A stretch of DNA of 38,964 nucleotides from a virus: the UHGV virus genome UHGV-0287902. One strand, given 5' to 3'. The notes under the pieces are model-generated. The model worked only from the letters and a program-made list of their open reading frames with translations, did no database searches and was not told the origin of the DNA. A program made the position numbers and the translations under genes. Positions 2-413 of the stretch are shown one piece after another; the stretch's first letter is position 1; every line of letters begins with the position of its first letter.

Positions 2-154
2 CTGCCGGTGCCCCCATTTGTTAAACAAAGCAAAGATCAACTGCTCATTACACTGTGGCTGACGGGCGAAGACCCACCGCAGCGCATTATGCTGCGTACA
101 GAACACGATAACGAAGAAATGTCAGTATCGATGCATAAGCATGTAACCAGGTGA
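2..154 (+). CDS. possible 3' end of an interrupted host gene (open from window start, stop TGA 152-154)
   Basis: Frame open from position 2 to TGA at 152-154, directly abutting first end repeat; no start in window. Confidence 0.25.
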
Positions 155-155
155 A

Positions 156-318
156 TCATTTGATACCAACGAGGGTTTTAGTGAAAGGAGGTGAAATCAC
201 CTGTAAGATACTGAAATAAAACAGGTGATGTCTGGATGAGCGCTTAAAGTCTATTTGATACCGATTGTGCAATAATTAATCGTTTATTCTAAAATCGGCA
301 AAACTTTTGATACTACGG
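156..318 (+). repeat. left-end putative transposase binding sites (three TTTGATAC repeats)
   Basis: tcaTTTGATACCaacg at 156-170, tatTTTGATACCgattg at 252-267, cttTTGATACTacgg at 304-318; 8-bp inverted repeat TCACCTGT/ACAGGTGA at 197-229 between first and second site. Confidence 0.6.
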
Positions 319-413
319 ATTGACGCTTAAAATGGCTTTAAAAAGGCTTAAAACGTTTTTCTCCAGATTGTCTTTAAAGGAGTGTACTACAGCACAAAAA
401 TTGCACCACTCCC

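Follow-up and report, generated by a model that had tools for sequence, protein, structure and literature searches.

The DNA analyzed here is the virus genome UHGV-0287902, a stretch of 38,964 nucleotides (nt) hereafter referred to as the window, which opens with the interrupted 5' part of the Escherichia coli gene malZ and from there on carries a Mu-like transposable prophage of the Sp18 family. The open reading frames (ORFs) of the prophage are arranged in the order of phage Mu, with c-like, ner-like, A and B genes at the left, then the head and tail genes and an invertible tail-fibre segment, and com and mom at the right. Three short repeats lie near each end of the prophage. The positions of the main features are listed in Table 1. 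We conclude with high confidence that positions 142-38964 represent one complete Sp18-family copy that has transposed into malZ, and that the repeats at its ends are most likely the end sites of its transposase.

Sp18 is the Mu-like prophage in the Sakai strain of E. coli O157:H7. It has been described as intact, as being packaged efficiently and as not circularising (PMC2669165), and its relatives occupy variable sites (PMC7430833, PMC10132054). The prophage in the window is 92-96% identical to Sp18-type prophages, with which it has a common gene order and identical terminal sequences. More than 220 complete E. coli genomes contain its last 1.2 kb at 96% identity, and 25 kb are shared at 92% identity with Mu-like phages that sit within Stx phages (LC727895.1, LC727881.1). 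The Sp18 family is present in about 230 of 5426 complete E. coli genomes.

Table 1. Features of the window. Offsets of the repeats are counted in nt from the nearer terminus.
Feature	Position	Strand	Sequence	Basis and remarks
malZ (maltodextrin glucosidase), 5' fragment	1-141	+		Interrupted by the prophage; 100% match in 5412 E. coli genomes
Predicted left copy of target duplication	138-141		AGCA	4-bp rule and intact malZ; right copy outside the window
Whole transposable prophage, Sp18 family	142-38964	+		38,823 bp; nucleotide identity and junction alignments
Left terminal 17 nt	142-158	+	5'-TGTAACCAGGTGAATCA	Inferred cleavage site, CA-3' on bottom strand
Repeat L1	159-167	+	TTTGATACC	nt 18-26 from left terminus
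Repeat L2	254-262	+	TTTGATACC	nt 113-121 from left terminus
Repeat L3	306-314	+	TTTGATACT	nt 165-173 from left terminus
Repressor-like gene (c position of Mu)	414-998	-		Assigned by position; 585-bp homologue annotated in relatives
Ner-like winged-helix DNA-binding protein	1166-1414	+		Pfam HTH_35, E 2.5e-19
Transposase A, DDE type, 696 aa	1416-3506	+		Pfam Mu-transpos_C 2.2e-17, HTH_Tnp_Mu_1 6.9e-06; presumed binder of the repeats
MuB-like AAA+ target-delivery protein	3578-4510	+		Pfam Phage-MuB_C 2.5e-25, AAA_22
Gin-like invertase	33764-34336			Pfam Resolvase
Repeat R3	38882-38890	-	TTTGATACT	nt 75-83 from right terminus
Repeat R2	38917-38925	-	TTTGATACC	nt 40-48 from right terminus
Repeat R1	38939-38947	-	TTTGATACC	nt 18-26 from right terminus
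Right terminal 17 nt	38948-38964	+	...AAAATCGCCGCGCTATA-3'	Last base of the window is the terminus; TA, not CA

The limits of the prophage were mapped on a junction set in which 13 insertions are represented by both junctions and five others by the right junction alone, supplemented by four intact empty sites. On the left side, homology among 11 independent paired insertions starts at TGTAACCAGG (TGTAACC), which corresponds to position 142 of the window, and the intact malZ allele (...ATGCATAAGCA followed by GCGCAGTCAG) matches the window up to base 141 and diverges from base 142. The left terminus is therefore position 142, and the base equivalent to it is also the annotated start of the inserted Mu-like phage in GenBank LC727895.1. 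The left end of the FORC_069 copy (L002, NZ_CP023061.1) reads TATAACCAGG (TATAACC) instead of TGTAACC. On the right side, the sequence shared by the aligned insertions ends ...CGCCGCGCTATA / ...GCGCTATA, equivalent to position 38964, and 18 different host flanks, a count that includes the flank of L033 (CP179977.1), which was not compared with the others, each begin directly after CTATA. The right terminus is therefore position 38964, the final base of the window, so that the window holds the whole phage but not the host DNA to its right; in the annotation of LC727895.1, the inserted phage likewise ends at the base equivalent to 38964. As judged from these 18 distinct flanks, the element inserts with sharp, constant ends at many unrelated host sites, target use being random. 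Additional right flanks were obtained from ten contigs encoding an identical Mom protein, among which seven flanks looked new and at least five represent new sites; two of the seven were already contained in the paired set, namely L029, the same insertion as L008/L003, and L028 (CP034212.1), at the dcuC site of L011. None of the seven Mom-contig right flanks is malZ.

These limits differ from those of the initial annotation, which had set the left terminus near 152, at a TGA that was taken to close a possible host ORF, and the right terminus probably beyond the window, where a terminal CA and a 5-bp duplication were to be looked for. A TG does lie at 152-153 as part of an in-frame TGA at 152-154, and in Mu (PMC8705779) the ends are TG...CA and 5 bp of the target are duplicated. 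However, bases 142-151 are common to all the independent insertions and thus belong to the phage, the proposed comparison with the uninterrupted host allele shows intact malZ to leave the window at 142 and not at 152, and in all 18 right junctions the host flank adjoins the CTATA that ends at 38964, the phage end being TA-3' in every case. The TGA itself is real, but it is phage sequence and does not naturally terminate a host gene: the malZ frame runs into the phage end (...SMHK-HVTR-stop), and the TGA at 152-154 closes this malZ-phage fusion frame, MalZ being truncated by the insertion after about 53 of its 605 residues. The search for a CA and a 5-bp repeat would fail, because the clade ends with TA-3' at the right and duplicates 4 bp (see below). 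Limits at about 152 and beyond the window with a 5-bp duplication are thus refuted by the junction alignments, and the probability left to them is negligible.

By exact-match search, eight copies of TTTGATAC were detected in the 38,964 bp against 0.79 expected (standard deviation, 0.80); among 100 dinucleotide shuffles the maximum was three, and in none of them was a count of eight reached. Six of the eight matches are located within 175 nt of the termini in mirror orientation, those at the left end being on the plus strand (159-166, 254-261 and 306-313) and those at the right end on the minus strand (38883-38890, 38918-38925 and 38940-38947). The ninth base of these six repeats is C in four and T in two, giving the word TTTGATACY. 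The three repeats at each end are alike in orientation and inverted relative to those at the other end, and they start at nt 18, 113 and 165 from the left terminus and at nt 18, 40 and 75 from the right terminus, with a spacing of 22 bp between R1 and R2. At both ends the outermost repeat occupies nt 18-26, leaving a terminal segment of 17 nt outside of it, and this equal distance provides an internal check on the mapping of the termini. With respect to the repeats the initial annotation was accurate: it had described copies at 156-318 and inverted copies at 38882-38950, ranges that include all six, and had taken them for the mutually inverted ends of a Mu-like transposable prophage, as is borne out here.

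The two remaining copies of TTTGATAC, at 3555-3562 (minus strand) and 19970-19977 (plus strand), could be cited in favor of chance matches in AT-rich intergenic DNA as the origin of all the repeats, but a total of eight against 0.79, a number never reached by shuffling, the symmetrical placement and orientation of the six, and the conservation of their geometry in relatives leave virtually no probability to this explanation. The copy at 3555-3562, the seventh in number, lies in the short stretch that separates the transposase gene from the B gene. It could have a regulatory role, or it could be a chance match, as 0.79 copies are expected and two lie away from the ends. The spacer between L1 and L2, at 190-235, contains the palindrome GGTGAAATCACC as well as a repeat of the hairpin type, TCACCTGT(16 nt)ACAGGTGA, and additional GATAC half-words are located at 207-211 and 38899-38903, 66 nt from the left and 62 nt from the right terminus, respectively. 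These elements may represent a weak fourth site or a site for a host factor.

From their position, symmetry and co-variation, the six TTTGATACY repeats are most likely the sites by which the DDE transposase encoded at 1416-3506 recognizes the ends; the ends thus carry multiple repeats, three plus three and inverted between the ends, with a putative role in transposase binding. The co-variation was recognized by comparison with three other lineages. With the transposase of the window taken as 100%, that of a second E. coli lineage (L020/L021) is 76% identical, and its ends carry the word TCAAGATAA at offsets of 19/90/142 on the left and 19/41/76 on the right. In the Mannheimia phage vB_MhM_3927AP2 (hereafter 3927AP2; transposase, 45%) the word is TTTTGCATAG, located at 18/108/165 on the left and 18/40/65 on the right, the sites at 108 and 65 being inverted. 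In the Pseudomonas phage VW-6B (47.5%) it is TTYTGGAC, located at 18/40/73 on the right; the left end of this phage is not usable because the record begins inside the repressor region. These two phages are close transposase relatives among isolated phages, and two records with 60-80% identity, which are probably Yersinia phages, lie outside the comparison. The words, 8- to 10-mers, have thus changed, and the offsets have been kept. Conserved positions with changing words would be expected for sites that are read by a diverging DNA-binding domain within a fixed transpososome geometry. Because the repeats are mirror-symmetric, lie at an identical offset from both cleavage points, and co-vary with the transposase in four lineages, they can be regarded as probable transposase sites.

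The right-terminal 13 nt (38952-38964) are strikingly conserved among these phages and Mu, being TATAGCGCGGCGA in the window, TGTAGCGCGGCGA in VW-6B, TGTAAGCGGTCGA in 3927AP2 and TGAAGCGGCGCAC in Mu; unlike this terminal segment, the inner repeats are completely different among them.

The direct repeat that abuts the ends is 4 bp long in 12 of the 13 paired junctions (10 of 11 in the lineage of the window and both in the second E. coli lineage), in place of the 5 bp expected at the outset. The duplications are TAAA, TTAG, CCCC, ATCA, CGCA, GTCA, TTCA, ATTA, TGCT and AGAG in the former and GAAA and TTCA in the latter, and in most of the ten events of the former lineage the fifth base beyond the repeat differs on either side. 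When the empty sites were rebuilt with a single 4-bp copy, those in sorM, yfcC and dcuC matched the intact alleles at 216 of 216 positions without gaps. In LC727895.1, 4-bp repeat_regions are annotated as 'duplication due to insertion of Mu', indicating that the depositors had already seen the 4-bp repeat. A short target duplication flanking the element is thus established for the clade, the right flank of the malZ copy lying outside the window. For this copy the duplication is predicted to be AGCA and the right flank AGCAGCGCAGTCAG, and the contig would be expected to continue with AGCAGCGCAG.

Several observations weigh against the conclusion that the window holds a Mu-like copy with 4-bp duplication and transposase-bound end repeats. 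The one exception among the 13 paired junctions is the insertion in ureC (L006, NZ_CP016625.1, FRIK944), in which an extra T stands between CTATA and TGAA, and which is also readable as a 5-bp duplication with one mismatch (GTGAA/TTGAA). Compared with the empty site reconstructed by the 4-bp rule, intact ureC is shorter by one base, and the extra T may reflect a one-base slip at cleavage or repair, the base having been carried over from the previous site. As to the malZ copy itself, a search of public viral contigs gave no match to its predicted right junction or to its left junction, a search of metagenome contigs gave none to the predicted right junction with 0-2 extra bases allowed, and the malZ insertion is absent from the complete E. 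coli genomes of the collection searched. With respect to the repeats, the end-binding domain of MuA was not detected by Pfam in the transposase, in which only HTH_Tnp_Mu_1 and Mu-transpos_C were found, and its identity to MuA is no more than 22%.

The ureC event could be accommodated if the duplication were 5 bp as in Mu and the boundaries were shifted by one base, in either direction, so that T142 or A38964 would be derived from the target. The yfcC and dcuC insertions are compatible with such a shift, since the base after the repeat is T in both (TTCA followed by T, ATTA followed by T), and the Sakai record (L001, NC_002695.2) sets the limits of Sp18 one base inside the left and five bases past the right terminus. 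The ten other events, however, differ at the fifth base on both sides (G, C or A as the next base; T, G or C as the previous one), the empty site in sorM, with G as its next base, matches at 216 of 216 positions with a single TAAA, and the ends at 142 and 38964 leave the same 17 nt to the outer repeat. Because T142 and A38964 are constant and the neighboring target bases vary, both belong to the element; a 5-bp duplication with shifted boundaries was rejected on this ground and is considered very improbable. The feature of the Sakai record spans 5040971-5079729, and the junction data place Sp18 at 5040970-5079724 with a 4-bp TAAA repeat; in the record, the limits seem to have been set on the assumption of a 5-bp repeat with one mismatch (TAAAT/TAAAG).

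The lack of a Pfam match to the end-binding domain of MuA leaves some room for the view that the repeats are real but serve in packaging (pac), in the binding of the repressor or Ner, or in the binding of a host factor. The pac site of Mu is located in its left end, and the pairing of repeat and transposase is putative throughout the family. A pac site or an operator is, however, not expected to occur at both ends in mirror arrangement and with the same offset of 18 nt relative to each cleavage point; furthermore, the 22-bp spacing between R1 and R2 is that of the MuA sites, and in four lineages the word changes with the transposase at positions that are kept. We therefore consider a function other than transposase binding to be unlikely, and prefer the reading of the repeats as transposase end sites.

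By analogy with Mu, we infer that transposase subunits would bind to the six TTTGATACY sites and pair the two ends. Nicks introduced at the 3' ends would leave the bottom strand with CA-3' at 142 and the top strand with TA-3' at 38964, and the MuB-like ATPase might help to join these ends to the target. Joining at points 4 nt apart would give rise to the 4-bp duplication, AGCA in the case of the malZ copy.

The transposase can be aligned with MuA over the full length at 22% identity, with D269 and D336 of MuA aligned to D309 and D375; E415 was placed by inspection, unlike these two residues, which were placed by alignment. Among PDB sequences, the closest matches of residues 363-426 are retroviral integrase cores. 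The genes for the transposase and the AAA+ protein B lie near the left end, downstream of the repressor-like and ner-like genes, as in Mu-like phages in the broad sense. The ORF of the repressor-like gene extends mechanically to 1127, and its sole helix-turn-helix match is weak and under the Pfam cut-off. At the right end, Zn_ribbon_Com and Mom were identified by Pfam.

Other parts of the prophage carry additional features. Inverted repeats of 86 nt (87%) and 50 nt (84%) at 32361-32509 and 33545-33693 surround a segment of about 1 kb, in which alternative tail-fibre ends and an assembly gene are located and next to which lies the gene for the Gin-like serine invertase; this arrangement looks like a host-range switch of the G-segment type. 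Between the invertase gene and com/mom, an ORF of 684 aa at 34422-36476 (plus strand), encoding DUF6645 and a carbohydrate esterase domain of the SASA (sialate O-acetyl) type, and small genes of the DUF826 type form a cargo that is absent from Mu. The 684-aa protein may act on surface polysaccharide, in receptor modification or lysogenic conversion. No tRNA gene was detected by ARAGORN in the whole window; in RefSeq records of two relatives a 'tRNA-OTHER' is annotated between the head-morphogenesis and virion-morphogenesis genes (L002, 18113-18192; L003, 21663-21750), and the equivalent region of the window is about 17654-17775.

For annotation, the prophage limits should be given as 142-38964 and the host gene malZ as disrupted. 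TA-3' is found at the right end of every copy, and TA is found at both ends in the FORC_069 copy and in the whole second E. coli lineage, the termini of which are TATGACT...GCGCTTTA. According to a recent survey, TG-CA ends were conserved in all described Mu- and B3-like phages until TA-TA ends were found in Leptospira, and the known scars are 5 bp for Mu and 6 bp for B3 (PMC8705779). Against these, the 4-bp scar and the pairing of TG with TA are variant features. Our literature search yielded no description of a 4-bp duplication in Mu-like phages or of TG...TA ends, no paper on the end repeats or the duplication length of Sp18, and nothing relevant on the ends of Sp18, D3112 or 3927AP2. We give about even chances to the view that the Sp18 clade is a natural Mu-type group, new to print, that joins its ends 4 nt apart instead of 5 and carries TA-3' at one or both ends, our confidence being limited mostly by literature outside the reach of the search. 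The element belongs to a known and widespread prophage family, the end anatomy of which appears to be largely undescribed and departs modestly from the Mu pattern. This family, widespread in E. coli and Shiga toxin-producing E. coli, escapes rules of thumb that delimit Mu-like prophages by TG...CA ends together with a 5-bp repeat, and if the clade trait is indeed undescribed, it would matter for prophage-boundary finders that seek these marks. For specialists in transposition, the conserved geometry with lineage-specific words, the TA terminus and the 4-bp stagger form a small, clean natural variation on the Mu transpososome; again if undescribed, they would offer a ready comparison for what determines stagger length and the demand for a given terminal dinucleotide in transpososomes of the MuA type.

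Comparison with known systems places the element within the family and apart from Mu in the strict sense. Sp18 of Sakai has the same termini and repeats and is inserted in sorM, in contrast to malZ in the window. Phage 3927AP2 has a TG start at both ends, inverted inner sites and its own repeat word, and VW-6B has a TG start at the right end, with TGTAGCGCGGCGA as its right-terminal word against TATAGCGCGGCGA in the Sp18-type prophage. In the ends of Mu, as read here, the CGAAA half-sites of L1 and R1 occupy nt 22-26, R2 follows 22 bp further on, R3 has the opposite orientation, and the cores at the left end are located at about 21, 125 and 166. The Sp18-type prophage resembles Mu in having three sites per end, an outermost site that ends at nt 26, a 22-bp interval between R1 and R2, an L1 separated by about 100 bp from L2 and L3 with the same span from L1 to L3, 5'-TG at the left end, and c, ner, A and B genes on the left and com and mom on the right. 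It differs from Mu in that R3 is direct, not inverted, the right end is TA-3' instead of CA-3', and 4 bp are duplicated instead of 5. No CGAAA or TTTCG was found in the first 200 nt at the left or in 120 nt at the right. The proposal made at the outset, a Mu architecture of three sites per end with a non-Mu end sequence, is therefore upheld by the offsets, the 22-bp interval and the lack of CGAAA. With respect to Muvirus (Mu, D108 and SfMu), the 22-bp MuA consensus with CGAAA is absent, the termini are not TG...CA (TG at the left, TA in one copy; TA-3' at the right in all 18 junctions), the duplication is not 5 bp, and the sequence relationship is distant, with nucleotide similarity confined to about 620 nt of the portal and head genes (about 72% identity) and 22% identity in the transposase. 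Departure from the Mu rule is shared with the B3/Tn552-type phages and the Leptospira prophages with TA-TA ends, the duplication of which is 6 bp (PMC8705779), and the FORC_069 copy and the second E. coli lineage are like the Leptospira subset in having TA at both ends. Unlike these B3/Tn552-type and Leptospira elements, the Sp18-type prophage has a transposase of a different family and duplicates 4 bp instead of 6.
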